Made by a program: the position numbers and the translations under genes
In this document: one piece after another, positions 31,713-63,770 of the stretch
Numbering within the stretch: position 1 is the stretch's first letter
How the letters are laid out: every line of letters starts with the position of its first letter
Source of the DNA: a candidate division Kazan bacterium RIFCSPHIGHO2_01_FULL_44_14
GTDB taxonomy: Bacteria; Patescibacteriota; Kazan-3B-28
Reading direction: 5' to 3'
Assembly (NCBI GenBank): GCA_001771185.1
Contig: METB01000001.1
Span: 439,200-503,199 of the forward strand
DNA: 64,000 nucleotides
Notes under the pieces: generated by a model
Told to the model about the DNA's origin: nothing
The model's database searches: none
Seen by the model: the letters and a program-made list of their open reading frames with translations, nothing else

Positions 31713-33278
31713 ATGGCTCGATCTCGTAAGCCCCTGAAGAAGAAACCAGTGCGCACTAAAAAGAAAGTAGTGCGTAAGTTAGTGAAAAAGGTAGTTAAAA
31801 AATCTGCCAGACGAGTAGTGAAACGGGTAGCCAAACGGGTAGTAAAGCACAAACCCGTTAGACGGGTAGTTAAAAAGAAACCGGCACTCAAGAAACGCTT
31901 GACCAAGAAGGCAAAGGTAATCAAGCGGAAGATTACGGCTAAGAAAGTTGTTCGTGGTAAAAAACTTCACAAGCCGATTGTGCGCAAACCTCTTGCCAAG
32001 AAAAAGATGGTAGTTAAGCATCCAGCGAAGCAGAAGCCAAAGCGAATTGTGGTGCCTAAAGTGCCAGAGACACCAGAAGAAGAAGTTGAAGATAAACTGA
32101 TCGATCTTGATTCAGAAGAAATCGCTGCCATGTCGGCTGCCAAAAAAGACCGGTCTTTGAAGAAACTGTCTCCGGAATTGCAGATGATGATTCAGCGAGG
32201 TAAAGAGCAGGGCTTCTTGACTCAACAGGAGATGGAGCGGTCCATGCCGAATGTAGAGAAGGATGTCAATCAGTTGGACTTACTGTTTAAGGCCTTAATG
32301 GAAGAAGGAGTGGAAATTGTTGATGTCCGCGACGATTTAATTTGGTCGGGAGGGACTTCAGAAAAATTAAGTAAGAAAACCGAAGCCACCAAAAAGAAAA
32401 TGCGGAGCAAGTTGGATGTTGGGATTGGTTCCAATTTGGCTGACGACGGGATTAGCGACGATTCGGTTCGGATGTACTTAAAAGAAATTGGTCAGGTAGC
32501 ACTATTAACTGGCGCCGAAGAAGTAATGTTGGCTAAACGAGTAGAACAGGGTGACCCATTGGCATCCAAGCAATTAGCCGAGGCCAACTTGCGGTTAGTG
32601 GTATCGATTGCTAAGAAATACATTGGTCGGGGTTTGTCGTTACTTGATTTAATCCAAGAAGGTAATATTGGTTTGATGAAAGCAGTCGAAAAATTCGACT
32701 GGCACAAGGGTTTTAAGTTTTCGACTTATGCGACTTGGTGGATTCGTCAGGCAATTACTCGAGCAATTGCCGATCAAGCCCGAACCATTCGGATTCCGGT
32801 GCATATGGTTGAAACGATGAACCGGTTGGCCAGAACTCAACGGCAATTGGTGCAGGAACTGGGTCGCGAACCGACGCCGGAAGAAATTGCCAATGAAATG
32901 GAATTGGAAGTCGAAAAAGTCAATCACATCTTAAAGATTTCTCAAGAAACAGTTTCATTAGAGAAATCGGTTGGGGATGAAGACGATTCATTGCTAGGCG
33001 ACTTTATTAAAGATGAAGATAGTTTGACGCCGGAAGAGGCCTCATCTTATGAACTGCTAAAAGGGGATGTGGGCGAGGTGTTGCATCTACTAACTCCGCG
33101 GGAGCAAAAGATTCTTAAAATGCGGTTTGGGTTAGATGGGGAATGGGCTCACACGCTGGAAGAAGTGGGCCAGGAATTTGGAGTTACTCGTGAACGGATT
33201 CGGCAGATTGAGGCAAAGGCCTTGATGAAATTGCGCAAGAGCAAAGATTCTAAGCGGCTAAAGGACTATTTGAAGTAA
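31713..33278 (+). CDS. rpoD: RNA polymerase sigma-70 factor RpoD with a ~110-aa lysine-rich repetitive N-terminal extension
   Basis: Regions 1.2 to 4 are conserved ([31 protein letters not shown], region 4 HTH). The N-terminus is made of KKxVxKxVKR repeats. Confidence 0.9.
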
Positions 33279-33415: not shown

Positions 33416-33507
33416 TTTTTATATTTGGCGAAGCTGTGATTGAGAGTGTATAATTGCCTCTGTAAGAGATTAATCCGGGGTAGCTCAGTGGTAGAGCGAT
33501 CGACTGT

Positions 33508-34069
33508 ACGTTAAAAGACGTCTTTGGTATACTCAATCGTGTTATGCCAGAGAAGAGAACATATGCCGATCGTGCCGAGTACATTAAACGAGCAGTGACG
33601 AAGCGCAGAAAAAAGCTGAAGACAATGCTGGTTGAGTATAAGGGCGGTCAATGTGCAATTTGTGGCTATAATCGGAGTCCAGATGTTTTGGAATTTCATC
33701 ATATTGATGAGTCCAAAAAAGAGTTTGGTCTATCGATTCGCGGACTAACTCGCTCATGGGAGAGGATGCGGGTAGAAGCCGATAAGTGCATTTTGTTATG
33801 CGCAAATTGTCATAGAGAAGTACATGCAGGTGTAGTGCAGCTTCCCCAAGTAATTGGGGATGAAAAATGAGGTGAATTGCGAGAAACCTAAGTTTATAGG
33901 CATAGTGGATATGGTAATTCGCAGCCAAGTTCCGGTTTGCCGGGAAAGGTTCAGAGACTATCCTTTATGGAGTAGTTCTACTAAATAGCAGAACGAAGCG
34001 CCTCACACCCCACTCTGAGAAGAAGGGTGATGATATAGTCCATGCCATAGCGAAAGCTGGGAGTACATG
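33508..34069 (+). ncRNA. Group I intron within tRNA-Asn, carrying an HNH endonuclease ORF
   Basis: Its position is inside the anticodon loop. The conserved P3/P7-like sequence elements cluster after the ORF. The exact splice sites are approximate. Confidence 0.55.
33544..33870 (+). CDS. HNH homing endonuclease (intron-encoded)
   Basis: CAICGY...EFHHID...CANCHREVH form the HNH/zinc-binding motif. 108 aa. Confidence 0.8.
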   Translation: MPEKRTYADRAEYIKRAVTKRRKKLKTMLVEYKGGQCAICGYNRSPDVLEFHHIDESKKEFGLSIRGLTRSWERMRVEADKCILLCANCHREVHAGVVQLPQVIGDEK

Positions 34070-35568
34070 TAATCGATTGGTCGTGGGTTCGAATCCCACC
34101 CCCGGAGCCAGTTTGAACAAGTAGATGCTTCAACCAGTAGGTTGAACGGAGAACGAAGCTCGTAGAGCAGGTTTTTCCCGTTTAACTTGCAGTTCTGAAG
34201 TAGGAAGCTCAATAGTTGCCGTTTTTCAGGGACTTCCGAACTTTTGAAGATGTCCATAGCTCTGGAAGCCAGGTTGAATACCATATTGGCGGTCAGGTAA
34301 AACTCTTCATCGGCTTGGCTGTGCGAGTTCATTTCAGCTATCAGCTCTGCCTGTCTACCCTTCCACTCTTTCAGCTTTTTGTCATACATATCCTGCGTAA
34401 TACTACGGTCGAGTTTGTCCTCGTACATTCTGGCTATACGATCTTCCAGCCGATCGTAGTCGGCTCGTAGGGCTGTCATACTCTCTTTGTGAAAATGGGA
34501 CTCATTTTGACCAGTTGTCTTGAGGTCTTGGGTAAGCCTGTCTATGGCTTCCTGGGGCATTTGAACGGCTTTCAGAGCCTTATAGACGGGCTTGAGTAGT
34601 TCTTCCTCTGGTACCCAAATCCTCTTACATAAGCCCTTGAAATTGGTACAGCTGTAGTAGATGTATTTGCCTTTCGATATTTCTGGGGTAATTAGGCAAC
34701 CGCATTTTTCGCACCTAATAAGACCTCGAAAAATATAGGGCTTGGCTCCAGCCTTAAAGGGCTTTTTATGGTAATTATCCATAATTGTCTGGCACTTGCT
34801 GAACAGCCATTCTGGAACGAGTGGCTCATACTTATGGCGATATTCTTTGCCATTGACGACCATTACGCCAGAGTAGAATGGGTTTCTTAAGTTCTTGTGA
34901 ATGAGGCTGGTTGTTAGCTTTTTGCCAGTTCTGGTAATAAATCCAGCCCTATCCAGCTCTTGCTTAATAGTTTTAACGGAGTGCTGACCTGTCCCATAAA
35001 GTTCGAACATCTTAGCAATCAAATGGGCTCGGTCTGGGTCGGGGACTATAGTTTTTTTGCCGTCTGGTAAGTCGTGGTTAATGTAGCCGACTGGAGCCAT
35101 CCCAGGGAACTCGCCATTCAGCAGTTTTTGAGAGATGCTTCTTTTAACATTGTCGCTGAGCTGTAATACATAGCTTCTGGCAAACATTACGCCCATATCC
35201 CAGCGAAGCAGGTCAGAGCTATTGGACTGGTCATTGAGAACGAGGTTTTCTCGGATAAAGTGAATTTCTAACTGTCCATTTTTTCGATACTCATCAAGAA
35301 CAACCGACTCTTTGAAGCTCCTTTGTAGGCGATCAATGGTTTCGACTACTAAAGCAACCTTGTCTTTGGAGCGTTTAATCTCATCAATTACAAGTTCAAA
35401 TTTTGTCCGTTGATCTTTGGTGGATGACTCGTCAAACTGATATTCACTTTTAACTTCCAGCCCTCGATCTTTGCACCACTGTCTTGAACGGGCAAGTTGG
35501 GCGGGGATAGACTGCCCGTCTTGCATTTGTTCTTCGGTCGAAACTCTGGCTAAGATGATGGCTCTCAT
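34003..35568 (-). CDS. Large serine recombinase (integrase); the annotated C-terminal ~36 aa read through the tRNA-Asn 3' exon and may be artefactual
   Basis: N-terminal resolvase domain with catalytic Ser (ILARVSTEEQ), recombinase domain, and a Cys-rich zinc ribbon (CEKCGC...CTNFKGLC). Confidence 0.85.
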   Translation of the reverse strand: MRAIILARVSTEEQMQDGQSIPAQLARSRQWCKDRGLEVKSEYQFDESSTKDQRTKFELVIDEIKRSKDKVALVVETIDRLQRSFKESVVLDEYRKNGQLEIHFIRENLVLNDQSNSSDLLRWDMGVMFARSYVLQLSDNVKRSISQKLLNGEFPGMAPVGYINHDLPDGKKTIVPDPDRAHLIAKMFELYGTGQHSVKTIKQELDRAGFITRTGKKLTTSLIHKNLRNPFYSGVMVVNGKEYRHKYEPLVPEWLFSKCQTIMDNYHKKPFKAGAKPYIFRGLIRCEKCGCLITPEISKGKYIYYSCTNFKGLCKRIWVPEEELLKPVYKALKAVQMPQEAIDRLTQDLKTTGQNESHFHKESMTALRADYDRLEDRIARMYEDKLDRSITQDMYDKKLKEWKGRQAELIAEMNSHSQADEEFYLTANMVFNLASRAMDIFKSSEVPEKRQLLSFLLQNCKLNGKNLLYELRSPFNLLVEASTCSNWLRGWDSNPRPIDYMYSQLSLWHGLYHHPSSQSGV

Positions 35569-36344
35569 ATTTTCCCTCTGGCTAACCTCTTGAGAGAGGC
35601 GTTAACATATCTCTTATCTTTTTCAATGCCAATCCACTTTCTTCCATACTGCTTAGCCACCAATGCTGTAGTCCCACTGCCCAAGAATGGGTCTAAAACG
35701 ATGTCTCCCTTACGAGAACTGGCAAGGATAATTCGTTTTAGCATTTCTTCTGGCTTTTGGGTTGGGTGAAGAGCTCTGTTGTGGGAGTCTCTAAGGCGTT
35801 CCTTGCCCTGTACAAGTGGCATTGTCCATACATCTCGCATTTGCTTAGGGCTTCCATCTTTTTGGGTCTCTGGGTTAATTCTTCGTAGTTCTTTATAATT
35901 GAAAACCCATCCGCGACCTTTTACAGCCCAGATGACAAACTCGGTAGAATGTGTGAATACTCGTCGAGTCATATTGGGCATTGGGTTGGTTTTATACCAA
36001 GTGATGATGTTATTGATCTTGAACCCCAGCTGTTTCAGCACAATCATCACCTCACCGATATTGTGATAACTACAGGCTATGTATAATGCTCCACCATTTT
36101 TTAGTACTCTGTAGCAACCAGCTATCCACTGTCTTGTAAACTGCAAATACTCAGGTGCGGTCATCTTGTCCCACTCTTCGTTGACCATATACCAGTCGCC
36201 CCCAGTTTTATTACCTTTCCACTTAAGTCCATTGCCAGAAAGGTTATATGGGGGGTCTGCAAAAATAAGACCAACTGAATCCTTTTGGACTTTTGACCCC
36301 AGGATTTCCACACAATCACCGTGATGGACTATATTCGTTTTCAT
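35565..36344 (-). CDS. Beta-class N6-adenine/N4-cytosine DNA methyltransferase
   Basis: Motif IV FADPPYN precedes motif I DPFLGSGTT, the N6_N4_Mtase order. 4-nt overlap with the recombinase gene. Confidence 0.85.
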   Translation of the reverse strand: MKTNIVHHGDCVEILGSKVQKDSVGLIFADPPYNLSGNGLKWKGNKTGGDWYMVNEEWDKMTAPEYLQFTRQWIAGCYRVLKNGGALYIACSYHNIGEVMIVLKQLGFKINNIITWYKTNPMPNMTRRVFTHSTEFVIWAVKGRGWVFNYKELRRINPETQKDGSPKQMRDVWTMPLVQGKERLRDSHNRALHPTQKPEEMLKRIILASSRKGDIVLDPFLGSGTTALVAKQYGRKWIGIEKDKRYVNASLKRLARGKI

Positions 36345-36347
36345 AGT

Positions 36348-38171
36348 TTATGCAGTCACCTCTGACTTCCAGAAGTTGATTATGTTTGGGATTTCTTGCA
36401 ACCAGTCGGCTGGGTTCTCGAAGTTTGATGAACTGGTCACGATTTTTTCATACAACTCAAATAGTTTTTGATGAGTTAAGAAGACTCCCTTCTTCTTGAT
36501 TTCGGGTAGCACCTTCAAGAGGTCTGCAAACTGAGTGATCGACAAGGGGACTATCTTTTGGGGTTTTCCCTCATATTCGTATTTAACAGCCATCCAGAAG
36601 GTATTAACCGTATCTCTATGTAGTCTTGGGGCAAGAAAAATACAATAAGTTGTTTTGGTATGGTTTGCGTCTTCAAAGTCTCTGAGGTGTCTCATAACAG
36701 GTTGACCTTCGTTGTACCATTGATCGCGACCAGTTAGCATAGTGACCTCACAGATTGCATTGCTTGACTCGTAATAGCACTCTATATCTGGCACATTAGC
36801 AGGGGCAGTGAAGGTTGGTTCATTGTCATCTCCTACTGGGTAGTTTGGTTTTATTGATAGAGCATCGTTAAGGGCATTAAGACCCAAAGAAGCGTATTTT
36901 TCCAGGGCAATCGGTCTATCCTCTTGGCTGAATATATTTTCCAATGCTTCTATATATTCTTTAACTGATCCAGCGTCTTGAGCTACTTGATGTACCTCTT
37001 GTTCCTGCAGGTCTCTTCTATAGCTACGAAGTAGATTCGCATAATCCTTGAGAGCGTCCTTTGATAACTTCTGATAGTCAAGGCGATGTTGGGCAGATGA
37101 GTTAAGTTTTTTCTCGTATTCTGCTATTTCTTCAGTAAGTTTCTTTATGATTTCGATGAATTTGTCTTTAGTTTCCCAAGGGAGTTGGGGCTTGGAGATG
37201 TCGGAAAGGTATTCAAAATACTCATCCTTGGAGGCGAATTCTATAGCCTCAGCATTGTCATATGTTAATAAATTGTTGATTTCCACCGATCTTCTCGGCT
37301 CTAAGTCTACATAGAAACCGTTGCCCCTGATGTATATATATCTGGTTAATCTGAAGTATCGGATAGCATTGTCACCATAGTCCTTTAGGTTATTCAGTAG
37401 TTTTTCTATCTCGGAGTTGTCACCTGAGTCGAGAAAACGAATAGCAAATTCTCTCTTGTAGCTCTTTAGGATTTGTTTTTGATCTGCTTTAGTCTTTCCA
37501 TCCATCGCATCTCTAAGTTGTAGAATCTGATTTGAGTAGGATTCTATGTCCTTAGAATGCACAAGTGTAGGTGAAAAAAGGGCAAACTCTTCATTGCTTA
37601 ATCCTTTGGGATTTTTGCCACGCTTTATTTCTTTAAGGTTAACCTGATTGATTAAATGGAGTGTCCCAATAAAGGGCTTGATATTGTAAGTTCCATCTCC
37701 TGCATAATCGTTGCTTACTGGGTTGGGGATTTGCCATTTAATAAAGAATCGGAAGTAAACATCTCCAATATCCACCTTGCCCTTTAGAAAGGCATTGCCT
37801 AAGTCGGTGATTACAATTGCACCAGTAGTCTTTTTCGCAGTTGCCAACCCCATTTTGGTCAGGGGTGCTACGGATGTTCTCCCTCGTAGTCCCAGATCGT
37901 TTCGGAGTTCCTTAGATCGGCTGACCATATGATTGAAAATTTCCCGTGCTTTTGCAAAAGACATTGTGTCTTCAGCAGTCCCGTAATAACTGGCTAATTG
38001 GACTGATAGACCAGTTGGTTGGTATAGCCTATTTTGAATCAAGAGGGTCTGGAACTTAACTTGTCCAGCTTCATCGAAATTTTCCCCTTCCATTTCTTTT
38101 AGCACACGCAAAAACGGCAGTACTCTGTCGGGATTTCTTACGGTGGTTGATAAAGACCAAGGTTTTTTCAT
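36348..38171 (-). CDS. Putative Type IIS restriction endonuclease (AlwI/PleI-family-like)
   Basis: ~608 aa between two methyltransferases. The call rests on size, the two-MTase context typical of asymmetric-site Type IIS systems, and recalled similarity to the AlwI family. No definitive catalytic motif was identified. Confidence 0.45.
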   Translation of the reverse strand: MKKPWSLSTTVRNPDRVLPFLRVLKEMEGENFDEAGQVKFQTLLIQNRLYQPTGLSVQLASYYGTAEDTMSFAKAREIFNHMVSRSKELRNDLGLRGRTSVAPLTKMGLATAKKTTGAIVITDLGNAFLKGKVDIGDVYFRFFIKWQIPNPVSNDYAGDGTYNIKPFIGTLHLINQVNLKEIKRGKNPKGLSNEEFALFSPTLVHSKDIESYSNQILQLRDAMDGKTKADQKQILKSYKREFAIRFLDSGDNSEIEKLLNNLKDYGDNAIRYFRLTRYIYIRGNGFYVDLEPRRSVEINNLLTYDNAEAIEFASKDEYFEYLSDISKPQLPWETKDKFIEIIKKLTEEIAEYEKKLNSSAQHRLDYQKLSKDALKDYANLLRSYRRDLQEQEVHQVAQDAGSVKEYIEALENIFSQEDRPIALEKYASLGLNALNDALSIKPNYPVGDDNEPTFTAPANVPDIECYYESSNAICEVTMLTGRDQWYNEGQPVMRHLRDFEDANHTKTTYCIFLAPRLHRDTVNTFWMAVKYEYEGKPQKIVPLSITQFADLLKVLPEIKKKGVFLTHQKLFELYEKIVTSSSNFENPADWLQEIPNIINFWKSEVTA

Positions 38172-39271
38172 AGTTTTGCTGTCCTTACTTTGCAAAAGAA
38201 AACTCTTTCAGTATGACCGTTGATATCGCTCTTGCCCGTGGTAAAAGCACGATAAGTTTTTTCGAATGTCTTGACCTCGCCTTTTGCTTTTAAGATCCTT
38301 ACTATATCGTTGTCGCTAATTCTTGCATTGGATCTATCGTTCTTTGATTCTCCTGTGTTGTTGTAGGATAGCAATATATATTTACAGTTGGCATTTTGTA
38401 TTAAATCCTCCAATGCCTCAGTTGCTCCCCTTAAGCAGTATTCACTTTTGATATGGGATCGATCCATCTTTTTGGCAATGCCAGATACAGTTGGCTTACC
38501 CCAATCGACGAGATTCTCTAAAAGGTGGTAGGCATCTGAATACTGCCGTGAATTATAGGGTGGGTCGATATATAGCACATCGCATTTTATCTTCCTCACA
38601 AGAGCGTTGGCATCTTCTTTGTAAATCCTATTGTTGTGGTTAGATTCCCAGTCAATCTCGGGTAGCAACAGAGTGACAGGTTTCTGCTTGTCTATATCTG
38701 GACTCTTTCGATAAGCATCGTAGTGACCCACTGTATTTGCTATTTTATCTACCGCATACAAGAGAGAGCATAGCAGAATACTTTTTTCCTGTTCGGATTT
38801 TGATATTTCATCAATGGCACTACGGATCATCCCTATTTTTCTTGCGTTAGTAATTGAAAAGTAGCTATTTCCAAAATGCATTGAAAAGTAGTTATCCTCG
38901 TTCGTTTGCAAGGAATTAAGGTAGTCGATCTTATGTGTAATGGATTTTCTGTAATCGCCGTCCGTCATAAGGAAAGTCTTGAGACATACTATGCTACTGG
39001 ATAGTATGTCATTTGCGATTATCTCTGTCTGACCATCATTGAACTTTGCTCCCACCACTCCTGTACCAGCGAATATATCGCAGAATGTCTTGTATCCTTT
39101 GCATTCTTTTCCAACAATCTCCTCGATGAAAGATAGAAGCCTGTATTTACTACCCAAGTATCGTCTATTTTGGATACTAAATGTTTGGACAATAGATGGA
39201 CTGTCTACCAACACCCTAACACTGTTAGTTGATTGAGTTGGGCTAATTGTTATGGGTGAGATCCTGTTCAT
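38168..39271 (-). CDS. Dam-like (D12-class, alpha-group) N6-adenine DNA methyltransferase
   Basis: RYLGSKYRLL and DIFAGTG (motif I) precede LYIDPPYN (motif IV). Confidence 0.8.
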   Translation of the reverse strand: MNRISPITISPTQSTNSVRVLVDSPSIVQTFSIQNRRYLGSKYRLLSFIEEIVGKECKGYKTFCDIFAGTGVVGAKFNDGQTEIIANDILSSSIVCLKTFLMTDGDYRKSITHKIDYLNSLQTNEDNYFSMHFGNSYFSITNARKIGMIRSAIDEISKSEQEKSILLCSLLYAVDKIANTVGHYDAYRKSPDIDKQKPVTLLLPEIDWESNHNNRIYKEDANALVRKIKCDVLYIDPPYNSRQYSDAYHLLENLVDWGKPTVSGIAKKMDRSHIKSEYCLRGATEALEDLIQNANCKYILLSYNNTGESKNDRSNARISDNDIVRILKAKGEVKTFEKTYRAFTTGKSDINGHTERVFFCKVRTAKL

Positions 39272-39275
39272 AAAA

Positions 39276-39461
39276 TTACCTCGCACAGGCTTTGTCTAAA
39301 AACTTTTGGAATGTTTTGTGGTCAATTCTGAACTCTTTCCCCAGTTTATAAGCCTTCAATCTCCCAGCCTTTATGTAGCGGTAGATCGTCATTATATTTA
39401 CCTGCAGTTTGTCAGCTAACTCTTGGGCGGTGTAAAAATCCTTGTTTTTCATAGTCTCCAT
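39276..39461 (-). CDS. Excisionase-family/MerR-like HTH DNA-binding protein (candidate RDF or RM controller)
   Basis: YTAQELADKLQVNIMTIYRYIKAGRLKAYK matches the HTH_17/excisionase family. 61 aa. Confidence 0.55.
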   Translation of the reverse strand: METMKNKDFYTAQELADKLQVNIMTIYRYIKAGRLKAYKLGKEFRIDHKTFQKFLDKACAR

Positions 39462-39486
39462 ACTTACTACTATACTTTACAATGCT

Positions 39487-40605
39487 TTACATATCAACTT
39501 CGTGTTTATAGGGCTTGAATTCATCAATCTGGGTAATGATTTGTTTAACCCAATCGTGATATTGGGTAGGGCTTCGGTTGAGAGTTCTTAGCCCTTTTGC
39601 CAATCTCATCCAAGTGCGGTCGCTGGATTTGGGAGATAGGGCTTGTCTCAGTTTGCGGATACCCGCTTCATCTTGGGCTAAAGTCTTGAGTCCTGTGAGG
39701 TATATGGCTTGTTTCGGTTTGATCTTGGGTTCACTGGCTAAAATATCCTGTAAAATTTGGTGTGGGCTGGTGTGGGTATCAAAAATAAATAGGTTGTGTT
39801 CGGCTACGAACTCCCTCCAGTAATGTTCGATAACTGTCTTGGCGGTCTTGTTTTGAATGACATCTCGGAGGGTGGGGTTAATTGGAAACCCTAACTTACC
39901 AAATAGGGAGTTGAGTTTCTGTTTCTTGGACAGCCTTACTTCCATTCTCAAAATCTCAAGGTGGCTATCAGATAGCGGTTCGAAGAGGGAGCGTTGAACA
40001 TAGTTTTGATGTTTATCGGTTGCTCTTTTGTCGGGTTTTGTCAGGTCTTGGATTTTGTCATAAAAGACGAGGGAGTGGGAGGCTGTGTAATACTGCAGAG
40101 CTTCACCATTAGTAAATTTCATTGGGGTCAGATCCAGTCGCTTGGGGACATTGACCTTGGCTAAATCCTTGAGAACACTGCTACAGGTGTATGGGTATGG
40201 AAGCTCTAGGTTCTTGGAGTAGTGGACTGCCGACACTTTGGCGTTGATTAGGAGTTCACTCAATACGCCAACCCCGATTTCTCTTAACTCGGTAGCCAGT
40301 TTTTTGATTAGCTCTGGAAACTCAACTTCAGCTGTCTCGTCTAAGTTGTTGCCATATAGCAGTTTAGGGATTGAAAACTCGATTTTAAGTGGCTGTTCGG
40401 TCTGTCCGTTTTTTGTCATCCTTTTCATCAGGGTAAGTCGGGGTCGATAATGCTTTGTTCGCTTGTCTTGAGCTGTGGGGTTGTTCACATACTTAATCAA
40501 GTAGTTGCCAGGCTGTTTAAGGGCTTCAGCGTTAGGCTGAAACCGCTCGGGTTTCAAGATGAGGTATTTGCCTTGTGGGATTTGTAGGATTACGGTGTCA
40601 ATCAT
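39487..40605 (-). CDS. Hypothetical protein (mobile-element cargo; possible replication/initiator-like)
   Basis: 372-aa ORF with no secure motif. Confidence 0.45.
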   Translation of the reverse strand: MIDTVILQIPQGKYLILKPERFQPNAEALKQPGNYLIKYVNNPTAQDKRTKHYRPRLTLMKRMTKNGQTEQPLKIEFSIPKLLYGNNLDETAEVEFPELIKKLATELREIGVGVLSELLINAKVSAVHYSKNLELPYPYTCSSVLKDLAKVNVPKRLDLTPMKFTNGEALQYYTASHSLVFYDKIQDLTKPDKRATDKHQNYVQRSLFEPLSDSHLEILRMEVRLSKKQKLNSLFGKLGFPINPTLRDVIQNKTAKTVIEHYWREFVAEHNLFIFDTHTSPHQILQDILASEPKIKPKQAIYLTGLKTLAQDEAGIRKLRQALSPKSSDRTWMRLAKGLRTLNRSPTQYHDWVKQIITQIDEFKPYKHEVDM

Positions 40606-40821
40606 TGTTTTGGTTTTTTATATCGGTTGGGGTTATTTCTGCGGTCGATCTTAAGTAGAAGCTCCATAAAACCAACCAGGTTTTGCCAGTCCTCTCTGGG
40701 CAAATGGCTGAGCGGTTTTTTCTTGGGTTGAATTGTGGGTAAGTTGTTGGACATAAAAATAACCCCTATCTTGAGGTTATAAAATGTCGTGTTTGCAGAA
40801 CTCTGCGGATTAGTCTGCAGA

Positions 40822-41991
40822 CTATTTCAGGTACTTTTTGTTGAGCTGGAGCGTAGTTTTTTTCATAATCACAAAATCCCTAATCCTTGTCTGCTTGGCT
40901 ATTTCTTCATTAAGATCGTAGGTGGCGTTGTACATCTTCTTCCAGTGTTTGCGGGGGTTATATTCAATGTTTTTCCCGAAGAGCTTTTCCCAAATCTCAT
41001 CCACAGCCCATACCTTGGCTGGAGCCTTAAAGATGGCTTTGAGTAGATAGTGAGGGTTGCTGTTGTGGGTCTTGGATATAGTGATTTTGTTGGTTTGAAA
41101 GGTCAATTGACTGGTCTTGGAGTCGAATGACGCTGGTTGCGATATGGAGGTTCGTGCTGGTGTTTTATACTTAGCATCGATCTCTGCCATCGCCTTATCG
41201 AGCAGGGTTAATCTAATTTTAAAGACATCAGTGTCATCGTCTTCGGGTGGTACATCCATATCTATGACCCACACAGCTTCTATGTCTAAGTAGCCCAGTT
41301 TCTCGAGGGCGATTAGAGTGTGTAGGGGAAGTGTTTTATCAAACCAGGTTCTGATCTCAGAACTCATCCAGTTATTGTTCTTGGTCTGATAATACTGACC
41401 CCTTAAAACAAAGGTATCCCCAAACTGTAATTGGAGTACTCGCAGGGTATCTAACATTGACTCTTTCTGCTTCTCGAACTTATACCAATTGATCGAGTCA
41501 ATTTGTAGCTTATCGTTGATAAAACCGTTGAGGTAAATATCCAAGAGGGTATCCAGTCGTTTTTTGTTATTGGGTTTAAGCTGAACTGGGAACTCAAACC
41601 ATTCTCCAAGCCCGAATTTTTTGAACAATATGGCTGAGTCGGCAAACTGTTTGAAGGTAAAGTTGTTGTCTAAGAAGGGGGCAATCCCTTTTGCCATTTT
41701 TTCAGCTTTGCCCTCTTGGTGATTTTTCAGAGTTTCCGCTCCGATCTTACTATATTGAGCATACAAATCTGTGTGAAAAATCATTCCATCAATTTCAATA
41801 CCCCACAAGTCGAATTGTAGAGCGACTCTAAAGGCACAGTTATCGATGCTGTCTTGGGTGGGAGATAGCATATCCTCAAACCGCATCAGGCTTCGAGGCA
41901 CTAAGCGTTCGGCGTTAGCATATTTCCACAGGGCGTATAACCCTGCCTCTGAGATATGGGGTATGGGGAGTTTGTTTGTTTGCTTGTTCAT
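40822..41991 (-). CDS. Hypothetical protein (mobile-element cargo)
   Basis: 389-aa ORF with no recognisable motif. Confidence 0.45.
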   Translation of the reverse strand: MNKQTNKLPIPHISEAGLYALWKYANAERLVPRSLMRFEDMLSPTQDSIDNCAFRVALQFDLWGIEIDGMIFHTDLYAQYSKIGAETLKNHQEGKAEKMAKGIAPFLDNNFTFKQFADSAILFKKFGLGEWFEFPVQLKPNNKKRLDTLLDIYLNGFINDKLQIDSINWYKFEKQKESMLDTLRVLQLQFGDTFVLRGQYYQTKNNNWMSSEIRTWFDKTLPLHTLIALEKLGYLDIEAVWVIDMDVPPEDDDTDVFKIRLTLLDKAMAEIDAKYKTPARTSISQPASFDSKTSQLTFQTNKITISKTHNSNPHYLLKAIFKAPAKVWAVDEIWEKLFGKNIEYNPRKHWKKMYNATYDLNEEIAKQTRIRDFVIMKKTTLQLNKKYLK

Positions 41992-42048
41992 CTCTTTACT
42001 TTAGTTTACAATAACCAGTAAACATATACTCATAATGCAACCATTTAT

Positions 42049-42816
42049 ATGACGGTCTGTATTGGAGCTTTGGCTGAGAATGGGCAAAAGCTGGTACTTG
42101 TATCGGATAAGATGATTACTGCTAACATCCCGATTGCTTATCAGTTCCAGAAGCCAGATGTGCAAAAAATTTATCCGATTAACAATAATGCCCAAGTGCT
42201 GACTGCTGGGAATGCTTTATATGCTCACGAGATTGTCCGTATGGCAGTAAAACGGGTTGCGAAAGAGCGTCTCGAGGGTAAAGATGCTCATAGCGTTGAA
42301 GAGATTACGGAGATAATAAGATCTATCTACCAGGCGTTTAGATTGCAAAAGGTGGTTCAGCTTGTCTTGGAGCCAAGGGGGTTATCATTGGATGCCTACT
42401 ATAGTAATCAACAAAGGTTGCACCAAGGAATGGTGGGCGAAATAGAGCAAAACTTAGTGAACTACAATATAGGAGTAGAGTTAATAGTCGCTGGTATTAA
42501 CCCTGGGGACGGATGTCATCTGTACAGTATTACCCATCCTGGCGTATCCGCCTGTCACGACACGATAGGATATGCCTGTGTAGGTAGTGGAGCTCCCCAC
42601 GCTCTCTATTCTTTAATAGCCTCTGAATATACTAAAGACAAATTGGTTGGGCAGGTTGAAGCGTATGTAGATGATGCTAAGAAAAAGAGTGAGGTTGCCC
42701 CTGGAGTTGGGACGGAAACCGAAAAGATCATACTTCCACCTGCTACAATAGAAGCGGTTCCAGAAGTAATGCATACAGCGGTGCCAGTATTAGATAATCC
42801 ACAGCCACCAGTATGA
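42049..42816 (+). CDS. Proteasome-like N-terminal-nucleophile hydrolase (HslV/Anbu-like), putative
   Basis: Thr directly after the initiator Met (MTVCIGALAENG), a Lys about 30 residues in, and a GSG motif (ACVGSGAPHA). 255 aa. Confidence 0.4.
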   Translation: MTVCIGALAENGQKLVLVSDKMITANIPIAYQFQKPDVQKIYPINNNAQVLTAGNALYAHEIVRMAVKRVAKERLEGKDAHSVEEITEIIRSIYQAFRLQKVVQLVLEPRGLSLDAYYSNQQRLHQGMVGEIEQNLVNYNIGVELIVAGINPGDGCHLYSITHPGVSACHDTIGYACVGSGAPHALYSLIASEYTKDKLVGQVEAYVDDAKKKSEVAPGVGTETEKIILPPATIEAVPEVMHTAVPVLDNPQPPV

Positions 42817-43046
42817 ACGAGGATTTTGAACAGAGTAAAGCGAATGTTGTCAGCATTTCGGTAGCCCAACATCAAGCGTATATGCGTTGGGGTCTTCAGT
42901 CTCTCGTCTTTGAGGGGCTTAAAGACGAAGGGTTTATCCGACAGACCGATGGGAAGATGTTGGCAAAGAAGCTGGTTTCCTCCGATCAGGATGAGATTAC
43001 AGACTTGCCCAATTTTCAGCCCCATTTACTGCAAGTCCCGTCTTAA
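42813..43046 (+). CDS. Small hypothetical protein translationally coupled (ATGA) to the proteasome-like gene
   Basis: 77-aa ORF with a 4-nt overlap. Confidence 0.35.
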   Translation: MNEDFEQSKANVVSISVAQHQAYMRWGLQSLVFEGLKDEGFIRQTDGKMLAKKLVSSDQDEITDLPNFQPHLLQVPS

Positions 43047-43108
43047 GGATTTGTAAGTCTGCTCTAATTTGTTTCCAATCAAGAGTTCTAAGTTTGTCCA
43101 CGAGGGGG

Positions 43109-43143
43109 AGCCAAATGAAAACGAGTAAAGTGACCGAGGTGCC
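43109..43143 (+). repeat. 35-bp direct repeat R1 (candidate attL), containing a truncated 13-codon copy of the small ORF at 63742-63840
   Basis: AGCCAAATGAAAACGAGTaAAgTGACCGAGGTGCC compared with 63736-63770 AGCCAAATGAAAACGAGTcAAaTGACCGAGGTGCC, 33 of 35 identical. Confidence 0.7.
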
Positions 43144-45258: not shown

Positions 45259-46638
45259 CTAGCGGGCTGAAGTGGGTTCATCGATAAGCTTGGTTAGGGT
45301 AGTTTTCTTATTGTCTTGTAGTGTCAGTTTGCCTTGGTTCAATATTACTTGGCTTTGGATGTTTGCTAGTATCTCTCGCTTTTGTTCATTACTACCTTCC
45401 CGGAGAATGTACTTGGCATACATTTTCAGGTCCACTCTTGGCATTTTGGAGGTGGCGGAATCTATCCCCAGCACTCCCTGCGTGAATTTATTGTAGCGGT
45501 CTATCTCTTCCTGCAACCTATCCTTCATCCCGATTCGATCTAGAGTCAGTTTATCGATAATCTCCACAAATTGTTCAATGAGGTCTGCCTCTCTGACATA
45601 AGGTTGTTTGCACCCGATTCTCTTGCTATCTGTGCAGTGATAGTAGACATGGCGATTCATCTCACCATTCTTTAATCGCTTGAATTTTTCTTCAGCACTG
45701 ACTCCGGCCCCGCACTGACCGCAGGTCATCATCCTTGTAAAGGCGAAGCACTTTTCACCATGACGGCCATGTGGGGGTTTAGAAATTCTAACTTGCACCT
45801 CATCAAATAACTCTTTGTTAATTAGTGGTTCGTGTTTGCCTTGGTAGCTTCCTTCGCCATAGGTATATTCGCCATAGTAGAAGCTATTCTTGAGAGTCAG
45901 AAAGATTGAACTTAGTGCCATCTTCTTGCCGCTTCGAGTCGTGAAGTTAGTTTCGCTATTAAGCCAATCTAAGATGTTCCTGCCGGAGTAGCCATGTTTG
46001 GCCACCTTATTGAAGATCTCTTTAATGGTGGGAGCTCTTTCTTTGTCGACCAAGATCGTGTTGTCGGCATAGTTGTTGAGATAGCCGAGTGGGGCGACTC
46101 CTGGTCGCCAGCCCATCTCACATTTGGTTCGCATCCCTCGTTTAACATTCACGCCCTTGTTATCGTTTTCCAATTTGGCTTGGGAACAGAGAATCATTAA
46201 GAGGAACTTCTCGTTAGGGGAGTTCCGGAATATCTGACCATGGGTTCTGATTTCGTGCAGAAGTCCTTGGTCCATAAGGTCGACCAAAGAGCCAAGGTCT
46301 CCGGCATTACGGCTCAATCGGTCTGGAGCCCATGTCATAATTCCATTGAAATCGCCTTCTCGGATTCTCATCAGAAGCTCAGTAAAGGCGGGTCTTTGGC
46401 CGGAGTCCTTAGCCGAGTGGCTTTCCTTGATAGTCTCTACTATCTCTATCCCATCCCTCTCAGCCATCGCCAACATCTCTTTGATTTGGCTGTCTATGGA
46501 GAGGGCTTGTCGTTCGTCCTGCTCTGAGGACTTACGGGCATAGAGACAGTACTTGGCTCCCTGTGGTTGCTCCATGGCTTCCGAAGACCCCTCGGGAGCT
46601 CCTGGAATCGTCTCGTTTTTCACCATATTTGCCTCCAT
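45259..46638 (-). CDS. Large serine recombinase (second copy, distinct sequence)
   Basis: The resolvase catalytic region CLYARKSSEQDE...DSQ, recombinase domain, and zinc ribbon (CGQCGAGVS...YYHCTD). The N-terminal start is uncertain (MEAN... or MEQP...). Confidence 0.8.
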   Translation of the reverse strand: MEANMVKNETIPGAPEGSSEAMEQPQGAKYCLYARKSSEQDERQALSIDSQIKEMLAMAERDGIEIVETIKESHSAKDSGQRPAFTELLMRIREGDFNGIMTWAPDRLSRNAGDLGSLVDLMDQGLLHEIRTHGQIFRNSPNEKFLLMILCSQAKLENDNKGVNVKRGMRTKCEMGWRPGVAPLGYLNNYADNTILVDKERAPTIKEIFNKVAKHGYSGRNILDWLNSETNFTTRSGKKMALSSIFLTLKNSFYYGEYTYGEGSYQGKHEPLINKELFDEVQVRISKPPHGRHGEKCFAFTRMMTCGQCGAGVSAEEKFKRLKNGEMNRHVYYHCTDSKRIGCKQPYVREADLIEQFVEIIDKLTLDRIGMKDRLQEEIDRYNKFTQGVLGIDSATSKMPRVDLKMYAKYILREGSNEQKREILANIQSQVILNQGKLTLQDNKKTTLTKLIDEPTSAR

Positions 46639-55647: not shown

Positions 55648-55722
55648 GCCGAGGTAGCTCATTGGTAGAGCGAGAGCTTGAAAAGCTCTGCGTAGGAGGT
55701 TCAATTCCTTCCCTCGGCACCA
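55648..55722 (+). tRNA. tRNA-Phe (anticodon GAA)
   Basis: GCCGAGG acceptor, D-arm GCTCATTGGTAGAGC, anticodon loop TTGAAAA, T-loop GGAGGTTCAATTCCTTC, CCA encoded. Confidence 0.8.
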
Positions 55723-55724
55723 AT

Positions 55725-55799
55725 GCCCCCGTAGGCTAACGGATAGACCAAGTCGCTTCTATCGACAGAGTGAGGGTTCGATTCCTTCCGGGGGCACCA
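55725..55799 (+). tRNA. tRNA-Arg (anticodon UCU), weak D-stem
   Basis: GCCCCCG/CGGGGGC acceptor, anticodon loop CTTCTAT, T-loop GAGGGTTCGATTCCTTC, CCA encoded. It lies 2 nt after tRNA-Phe. Confidence 0.65.
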
Positions 55800-63611: not shown

Positions 63612-63735
63612 GCCCTGCCACTGTCTCATTTGTCTCATTTTCTCCTATGGGTTCTACAACTGACCCACTTGCCCGAGCTCCTTTTCAAAAGCCCCAAATT
63701 ATCTCCTTAGGAATGCAATCCGAACCGAGCTGTTG

Positions 63736-63770
63736 AGCCAAATGAAAACGAGTCAAATGACCGAGGTGCC
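63736..63770 (+). repeat. 35-bp direct repeat R2 (candidate attR)
   Basis: See R1. This copy starts an intact 33-codon ORF (63742-63840, MKTSQMTEVPISVNLPLAEAIEREYQQVQLLL). Confidence 0.7.

Follow-up and report, generated by a model that had tools for sequence, protein, structure and literature searches.

The window analyzed here, a stretch of 64,000 nucleotides (64 kb) from contig METB01000001.1 of a candidate division Kazan bacterium, contains a split tRNA gene. We conclude, with a probability of roughly 0.85, that a mobile group I intron is inserted between U35 and U36 in the tRNA-Asn(GUU) gene of this ultra-small groundwater bacterium of the Patescibacteria, and that it carries a gene for an HNH nuclease. 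Judging from its sequence, the intron is genuine and intact and very probably functional; it would splice, and its product would cleave DNA. It is ordinary in kind, and apparently undescribed in its host tRNA, its site, its endonuclease family and the fusion of the open reading frame (ORF) into the ribozyme helices P1 to P3.

Exons and insertion site of the split tRNA-Asn gene

An earlier note on this DNA had described a tRNA-Asn(GUU) in two matching halves at 33474-34110, separated by about 562 nt. These coordinates hold exactly, and the insert (33508-34069) measures 562 nt. As read, the 5' exon is TCCGGGG TA GCTC AGTGGTA GAGC G ATCGA CTGT and the 3' exon is TAA TCGAT TGGTC GTGGG TTCGAAT CCCAC CCCCGGA G CCA, with the CCA encoded in the DNA (34108-34110). 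When the exons were joined, ARAGORN returned a tRNA-Asn(gtt) of 75 nt in which all four stems are perfect; on the genomic DNA with introns allowed, it returned tRNA-Asn i(35,562). G34, U35, U36 and G73, the identity elements for asparaginyl-tRNA synthetase (AsnRS), are all present in the joined sequence. Run with default settings on the window, ARAGORN found four other tRNAs and missed the split gene, and Rfam likewise showed no tRNA here. An unsplit tRNA-Asn with a better score was sought as counter-evidence, and neither ARAGORN nor Rfam found one within the 64-kb window.

Only one boundary pair in the window, CTGT/ACG...ATG/TAA (slashes mark the joints), gives a 7-nt anticodon loop with U as the last base of the 5' exon and G as that of the intron. 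Metagenome contigs were scanned for the predicted spliced tRNA sequence, and four uninterrupted tRNA-Asn genes were found among them. In one of these, L176 (uninterrupted allele at positions 175-249), the segment made up of upstream DNA and 5' exon aligns with the window over 64 nt at 92% identity, with the printed exon bases the same, and the 3' exon is identical throughout (100%). Relative to the two joined exons nothing is gained or lost in L176, and the joint falls exactly at CTGT/TAA. Because this intron-less gene is collinear with the two exons to the base, the insertion is fixed between anticodon positions 35 and 36 (U35/U36), where the earlier note had also placed it. As read from such loci, the presence or absence of the intron varies between close relatives. 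Upstream of the gene, the TGTATAAT block is conserved in L176, whose promoter block TGTATAAT-TGCC-CTGTAAGA is homologous to that of the window.

The exact HNH protein is encoded on 20 independent contigs from groundwater and other metagenomes. Ten of them were fetched: nine have the same split gene with a 562-nt insert, and the tenth (L002) ends inside the intron. Variation among their exons is slight, stem position 27 being A or G and one contig (L009) scoring one pair less.

On many homologues, ARAGORN in intron mode returned the labels Thr(tgt) i(33), His, Ser and Leu. We rejected these labels as boundary ambiguities (...CTGT/G...GTG/TAA...), because the tRNA bodies, G73 and the co-varying stems are all those of tRNA-Asn and only CTGT/...G/TAA suits every locus. 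For annotation, this means that standard tRNA finders miss the gene or, with introns allowed, call it tRNA-Thr, tRNA-His or tRNA-Ser, so hundreds of Patescibacteria genomes will seem to be without tRNA-Asn.

The group I core and the HNH gene in its P1 loop

The Rfam model Intron_gpI (RF00028) matched the plus strand at 33782-34062 with 81.2 bits (E = 4.4e-19, full model 1-253), against a gathering score of 50 bits, and 13 related loci were likewise above this threshold. The earlier note had called the insert a group I intron and had named an Rfam search as a way to disprove it; the search found the core, and the covariation described below agrees. The G at the intron end, G34069, which the note had also pointed out, is found without exception in 60 of 60 homologues. 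There is a single P2 in the compact core, and the helices P3 to P9 were all located, the P3/P7 pseudoknot included (Table 1).

In P1, U35 (33507) is the splice-site U of a U-G wobble, opposite a G of the internal guide sequence. The guide GUGCAG lies about 330 nt downstream of the 5' splice site, and its GCAG is conserved in all homologues. In 56 of 58 homologues, base 1 of the intron and the base 5' of GCAG form a pair that spans about 320 nt of ORF; the pairs are G-C in 37, A-U in 14, G-U or U-G in 4 and U-A in 1. At least 58 homologues share one layout, namely CUGU, L1, GCAG, CUU, P2-GNRA, UGAAAAA and P3 in this order, in which the P1 loop measures 5-9 nt in ORF-less introns and 310-354 nt in ORF-bearing ones.

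Other candidates for these elements were tried and rejected. A guide just inside the intron, in the fashion of Azoarcus, was looked for and none was found there. A GCAG further upstream (33826-33829, inside ...CATGCAGG...) was rejected as the guide, the copy at 33837-33840 being the one conserved next to P2 in all homologues. An 8-nt repeat, AGTACATG, occurs both in the ORF and at the 3' splice site, and we took it as chance because homologues do not retain it.

Sixty cores were aligned with MAFFT, each reaching from two bases 5' of GCAG through the whole acceptor stem. From this alignment RNAalifold recovered only P2, P4, P5, P8 and the T-arm; P3, P6, P7 and P9 were placed by hand and then counted in it. 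Over P2 to P9 and the T-arm of the sixty homologous introns, 92.2% of the cells are paired, compared with 32-46% when the partners are slid by 1-3 columns, and 35 of the 48 pairs change on both sides. Two-sided changes amount to 564 cells, against 167 ± 13 in shuffles, and none of 500 shuffles reached 564. For P2, all six pairs counted (alignment A2) change on both sides and 96.7% of the cells are paired; among homologues this helix has 5-8 bp and is capped by a GNRA tetraloop in 62 of 63. P3 covaries at five of its seven pairs. Both strands of P7 are invariant (60/60), and J8/7 is likewise unvarying.

The two extra hairpins between P7 and P3' are shared by many homologues in the alignment and absent from some. 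Such hairpins are typical of subgroup IA and not of IC3. In the window intron, the core looks IC3-like and the added hairpins (33961-33994) look IA-like.

The HNH ORF is the only long plus-strand ORF in the insert (33544-33870). Its last 34 nt overlap the GCAG of the guide, P2, J2/3 and the start of the P3 5' strand, whose first three bases double as the UGA stop codon of the ORF (33868-33870). Because the GCAG, P2 and the stop in P3 have coordinates within the ORF, the ORF lies in the P1 loop, and its reading frame continues across the guide and P2 as far as P3. The earlier note had put the core elements after the ORF: the core is indeed present, but its guide, P2, J2/3 and the start of P3 overlap the 3' end of the reading frame. 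The conserved C-terminal 'QLP' of the HNH family is the translation of CAG-CUU-CC(N), and the C-terminal ends of free-standing copies differ. Such dual coding, with a nuclease ORF in the P1 loop running on into P3, is an unusual layout.

The note had taken the ORF for a 108-aa HNH endonuclease, and several lines agree with it: Pfam, PHROG, the invariant motif residues and, weakly, the Foldseek neighbours. Pfam HNH (PF01844) gave 23.1 bits against a cut-off of 21.4, a marginal pass, and PHROG phage HNH families matched the ORF at E = 5e-30. Residues C37, C40, H52, H53, C86, N88, C89, H90 and H94 are invariant among 29 diverse members (CxxC...HH...CxNCH..H). A PDB sequence search gave weak matches only, to the HNH domain of a group II maturase and to McrA, and NCBIfam held no model for the protein. 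The AlphaFold 2 (AF2) model, with a predicted local distance difference test (pLDDT) score of 87.5, has a long N-terminal helix and a strand-strand-helix at residues 49-95, which may correspond to the beta-beta-alpha-metal fold of HNH enzymes.

Compared with 35 homologues, the window ORF has a median proportion of synonymous differences (pS) of 0.84, which is saturated, and a proportion of nonsynonymous differences (pN) of 0.215. Because the synonymous rate (dS) is saturated in 32 of the 35 pairs, dN/dS (nonsynonymous to synonymous) is not expressible as a ratio. On these values we read the HNH protein as being under long-term purifying selection, and the family as old because the synonymous sites between its copies are saturated.

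Of 38 homologues, 27 have a TGGTATACT-type motif 9-10 nt ahead of the ATG and 29 have it at any spacing (strict motif match); those that have it include free-standing copies, for example L033, L057 and L090. The motif is similar to the extended -10 in the promoter of the tRNA itself, and the HNH ORF lacks a Shine-Dalgarno sequence. From this resemblance and the missing Shine-Dalgarno we infer that TGGTATACT is a candidate internal promoter, private to the HNH gene, which would give a near-leaderless mRNA.

Table 1. Coordinates of the split tRNA-Asn gene, its intron and neighboring features in the window
Feature	Position	Strand	Remarks
sigma-70 gene (housekeeping), upstream of tRNA-Asn	31713-33278		
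Promoter-like site for the tRNA gene	33425-33454	+	TTGGCG-18-TATAAT; TG just upstream of the -10; ends 19 nt before tRNA position 1
tRNA-Asn 5' exon, positions 1-35	33474-33507	+	34 nt; acceptor TCCGGGG, D-arm, anticodon stem ATCGA, loop C32 U33 G34 U35
P1 5' strand	33504-33509	+	exon CUGU plus intron AC; pairs with GUGCAG 33835-33840
Group I intron	33508-34069	+	562 nt; starts ACGUU, ends ...CATG; omega-G at 34069
TGGTATACT, extended -10-like element	33525-33533	+	10 nt upstream of the HNH ATG
HNH endonuclease ORF	33544-33870	+	108 aa; in P1 loop
Internal guide sequence GUGCAG (P1 3' strand)	33835-33840	+	GCAG core 33837-33840, within ORF codons Val-Gln
P2 hairpin UCCCCAA-GUAA-UUGGGGA	33843-33860	+	7 bp, GNRA loop
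P3 5' strand UGAGGUG	33868-33874	+	pairs with 33999-34005
P4-P5-P6 domain	33878-33950	+	Rfam alignment; covariation for P4, P5, P6
P4	33878-33883 with 33918-33923	+	
P5	33887-33889 with 33912-33914	+	
P6	33924-33926 with 33948-33950	+	distal P6 hairpin 33930-33945
P7 5' strand G(A)GACUA, guanosine-binding helix	33954-33960	+	pairs with UAGUCC 34036-34041
Two extra hairpins between P7 and P3' (P7.1/P7.2-like)	33961-33994	+	UCC-UUUAU-GGA and GUUCU...AGAAC; read from sequence
P3 3' strand CGCCUCA	33999-34005	+	
P8 hairpin CACCC...GGGUG	34006-34029	+	5/5 pairs covary
P7 3' strand UAGUCC	34036-34041	+	conserved J8/7 GAUGAUA before it
P9 hairpin, GAAA loop	34045-34061	+	6/7 pairs covary; 75% of cells paired, alignment imperfect here
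tRNA-Asn 3' exon	34070-34110	+	41 nt; U36 A37 A38, stem TCGAT, variable loop, T-arm, CCCCGGA, G73, CCA

Relatives in bacterial genomes and viral contigs

At E <= 1e-3 the HNH protein matches 2854 protein clusters (90% identity), with identities of 63-99% and lengths of 100-167 aa among the best 120. Its named homologues are from Patescibacteria (Candidate Phyla Radiation, CPR). A genome-collection scan with an alignment of homologues found relatives in at least 594 species genomes, mostly Patescibacteria, and 80 loci fetched from these genomes form the basis of the locus counts. By pattern search, 65 of the 80 have the CTGT/...G/TAA split tRNA-Asn and one (L040) has an uninterrupted gene; the anticodon stems of the split genes differ between taxa and always pair. 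The HNH gene lies inside the tRNA-Asn intron in 55 loci and stands free beside an intron-bearing tRNA-Asn in 10, where it is upstream, downstream or divergent. Nine of those ten introns are ORF-less (192-289 nt), and that of L045 measures 575 nt. The same tRNA-Asn site holds ORF-less and ORF-bearing introns. Free-standing HNH genes beside an intron-less tRNA-Asn were found in L040 (strict detector) and L074 (ARAGORN/Rfam). These counts qualify two remarks of the earlier note, that the 35/36 site is unusual and that ORF-bearing tRNA introns are uncommon. Both stand when measured against the classical literature, but within Patescibacteria the same arrangement is common.

Some of these loci have features of their own. 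In L045 (1275-2285), the free-standing HNH gene is directly upstream of the tRNA-Asn, and the locus may hold two nuclease copies. In the free-standing HNH of L074 (1550-1846), Glu replaces the final histidine of the motif (CHREVEAG), and this copy may therefore be inactive. Outside Patescibacteria, a tRNA-Asn intron with HNH was seen in metagenome-assembled genomes labeled Acidobacteriota (L055, L059, L076, L086), in an Omnitrophica locus (L077) and in a Methylomirabilota locus (L081); since the GC content of these loci spans 0.42 to 0.69, some bin labels may be wrong. The four Acidobacteriota-labeled loci and L030 share a distinctive P2, formed by CCACAG or UCACAG, a GUGA loop (GCGA in L030) and CUGUGG or CUGUGA. 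The split tRNA-Asn ends a tRNA cluster in L088 (890-3091) and L030 (2339-3097), the order being Leu-Ala-Pro-Met-Met-Asn or Ala-Asn.

Viral contigs contain at least 579 HNH relatives with 45-64% identity, 80 of which were fetched with their loci (L094-L173). These genes are embedded in phage tRNA arrays, usually beside an intron-less tRNA-Asn(GUU), on contigs of up to 447 kb. tRNA genes are present in 79 of the 80 loci and tRNA-Asn(GUU) in 69. In 57 of these 79, no tRNA lies closer to the HNH gene than tRNA-Asn, the commonest distance being 15 nt; Asn accounts for only 73 of the 514 tRNAs in the arrays. Two viral loci have tRNA-Asn group I introns above the Rfam threshold (L165:869-1149 and L094:1434-2053), and two further tRNA introns fall below it, one in a tRNA-Asn (L150:1990-2258) and one in a gene called tRNA-Lys (L152:890-1208, with a AGAGACTA...ATAGTCC motif). 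Because the linkage persists in intron and non-intron contexts, it is the best available evidence that the tRNA-Asn gene is the target of the enzyme.

The 3' end of the window tRNA-Asn also borders two integrated elements in tandem (34105-43143 and 43108-63770). Island-free strains read ...GGAGCCA/AATGAAAACGAGT..., and this flank recurs in the window at 43108-43143 and at 63735-63770, the latter copy with 94% identity. The first element, of about 9 kb, encodes an AlwI-type restriction enzyme and two methylases, together with a large serine recombinase (34003-35568, minus strand); the recombinase ORF extends into both the 3' exon of the tRNA and the end of the intron. The second (about 20.6 kb), which may be phage-like, likewise encodes a large serine recombinase (45259-46638, minus strand), along with a ParB-methylase, and has tRNA-Phe(gaa) and tRNA-Arg(tct) within it (55648-55799). 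A resolvase-domain gene also lies on the minus strand just 3' of the split tRNA-Asn in L013 (2341-2976, Gottesmanbacteria), which suggests that serine recombinases have repeatedly used tRNA-Asn for integration in this clade. On the other side of the tRNA gene, the sigma-70 gene has an N-terminal extension of about 130 residues, very lysine-rich, before region 1.1.

Proposed mechanism, rival explanations and known systems

Exon bases C32-U35 and intron bases A1-C2 can pair with the guide GUGCAG to form P1, in which the U-G wobble marks the 5' splice site. We propose that external guanosine would attack after U35, and the freed 3'-OH of U35 would then attack after G34069, giving the mature tRNA-Asn. 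The exons would be held together by the anticodon stem and not by a P10 helix. In this it would be like other tRNA introns, for which alignment of the exons by the anticodon stem is reported (Zaug et al. 1993, listed in PMC3984707). The P1 loop holds a self-contained cassette made up of the extended -10-like TGGTATACT and the 108-aa zinc-finger HNH nuclease. This nuclease would nick or cut intron-less tRNA-Asn genes near the anticodon, and recombinational repair would copy the intron (or, in the free-standing relatives, the nuclease gene with its flanks) into the cut allele.

Several points weigh against a mobile, self-splicing intron of this kind. For P10, no convincing pairing was found that would join UAAU of the 3' exon to bases on the 5' side of the guide. 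A protein of 108 aa is small for a sequence-specific endonuclease and has no recognizable separate DNA-binding domain, and its Foldseek neighbors in the PDB, the HNH domains of Cap5, Cas9, T4 endonuclease VII and the Gme nicking enzyme, are weak (E >= 0.2). Translation of the ORF 3' end would compete with the folding of P1 to P3. Further, selection may maintain something other than, or besides, homing. The ribozyme might be active and the tRNA made while the HNH protein no longer homes and is kept for another role, for example as a maturase-like splicing cofactor or as a general nuclease useful to the host. We consider this unlikely, though it has points in its favor: synonymous sites are saturated while amino-acid divergence is low, the intron appears fixed in very many Patescibacteria lineages, the overlap of the ORF with P1 to P3 physically couples protein and RNA, and a homing endonuclease decays or gains another function after fixation (review PMC3984707). 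However, the catalytic and zinc ligands of the HNH motif are all invariant, which a pure RNA chaperone would not need. Moreover, close relatives differ in intron presence, and some of them stand free beside an intron-less phage tRNA-Asn, with no intron there to splice.

A dead gene, in which the intron no longer splices and tRNA-Asn is supplied by a copy elsewhere in the genome, seems very improbable to us. Our view covers 64 kb of the genome, and the default ARAGORN and Rfam runs show no tRNA at the locus. Nevertheless, every tRNA and ribozyme helix is intact, the invariant core positions are all present and the tRNA promoter is good; the same 562-nt split gene recurs with few exon differences in nine of ten fetched contigs from different samples, and a study of closed CPR genomes found their tRNA sets complete only if the tRNAs that carry group I introns were included (PMC8172020). 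That the split is an assembly artefact, a chimera or a chance resemblance is hardly credible, as independent assemblies agree on the structure and hundreds of homologous loci carry compensatory changes. Taken together, we prefer the mobile group I intron with an HNH homing endonuclease.

A wider reading is tempting, and we hold it tentatively, at a little short of an even bet. The HNH family may be a homing endonuclease lineage specific to the tRNA-Asn gene, caught at every stage of the route to a mobile intron, from free-standing beside an intron-less tRNA-Asn (phage arrays and some bacteria) to embedded in the P1 loop with its frame fused into the guide and P2 (the window). If this is true, the intron and its endonuclease would have been seeded across Patescibacteria and into Acidobacteriota, Omnitrophota and Methylomirabilota by phages with tRNA arrays, acting as reservoir and vector, and the endonuclease-invasion model could be tested directly on this system. 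The system would also comprise phage tRNA genes with group I introns, unseen as of the 2014 review (PMC3984707).

That review of bacterial group I introns lists introns of tRNA-Leu, tRNA-fMet, tRNA-Ile and tRNA-Arg; 'Asn' is absent from its text, and it states that no intron of a phage tRNA gene was known. The tRNAscan-SE 2.0 paper gives group I introns in tRNA-fMet and tRNA-Ile2 only. PMC8172020 mentions CPR tRNA introns only in passing, and the CPR papers otherwise describe rRNA introns. Searches of the open-access literature turned up no account of a tRNA-Asn group I intron, an insertion at 35/36 or this HNH family. Few group I introns are on record from bacterial tRNA genes, and the present one adds to them a host tRNA, a site within the anticodon (35/36) and an endonuclease family that are all new. 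The wider family is a natural test set for how a free-standing nuclease joins a self-splicing intron and why its gene stays intact for long.

Among known enzymes, I-HmuI and I-TevIII of phages are, like the one in the window, HNH endonucleases within group I introns. Unlike it, they sit in protein-coding genes, and there is no detectable sequence relationship to the window HNH beyond the motif; they are also larger, with added DNA-binding modules. The intron in tRNA-fMet of Synechocystis PCC 6803 is inserted after U36, whereas that of the window lies between 35 and 36, and its enzyme, I-Ssp6803I, is of the PD-(D/E)XK type and not HNH. This system (Bonocora & Shub 2001, cited in PMC3984707) resembles the window in being an anticodon-loop group I intron with an endonuclease aimed at the anticodon region of the same tRNA gene. 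It is a sporadic intron in the tRNA-fMet(CAU) of a cyanobacterium, whereas the intron of the window lies in tRNA-Asn(GUU) of Patescibacteria and is found in at least hundreds of species.

The introns of Azoarcus tRNA-Ile(CAU) and of Anabaena and plastid tRNA-Leu(UAA), which are compact and of subgroup IC3, share with the window a short P1 on anticodon-loop bases, GNRA loops on P2 and P9 and an anticodon stem that holds the exons. They have no ORF, whereas the window intron has one, together with its two additional hairpins in the P7-P3' interval. The IC3 introns are inserted at 34/35 or 36/37. The core strings AAUUGCG.GAAACC, GCCAAG, AGAGACUA and AUAGUCC of the window look similar to those of these introns. 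A small core is common to all: the ORF-less relatives of the window intron measure 192-289 nt, compared with 205 nt in Azoarcus (PMC13168695).

The rRNA introns of CPR bacteria (PMC11270868; PMC8172020; PMC11809585) come from the same host clade, are self-splicing and likewise bring endonuclease genes into genes for essential structural RNAs. They lie in 16S and 23S rRNA and mostly encode LAGLIDADG enzymes, whereas the window has tRNA-Asn and HNH. T4 SegB, in a phage tRNA cluster (PMC2330249), is free-standing like the HNH relatives beside phage tRNA-Asn, although it is a GIY-YIG enzyme and not HNH. In collaborative homing, known from two phage systems including the cyanophage psbA endonuclease (PMC3984707), a free-standing endonuclease lies beside an ORF-less intron, as do some of the bacterial HNH relatives, and the trans homing of T4 mobE (PMC2790892) has an arrangement like that of the free-standing HNH genes. 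In SegB and the collaborative systems the endonuclease is free-standing, whereas the HNH gene of the window is already embedded in its intron. The linkage between HNH and tRNA-Asn matches the schemes of intronless homing, collaborative homing and endonuclease invasion set out in PMC3984707.

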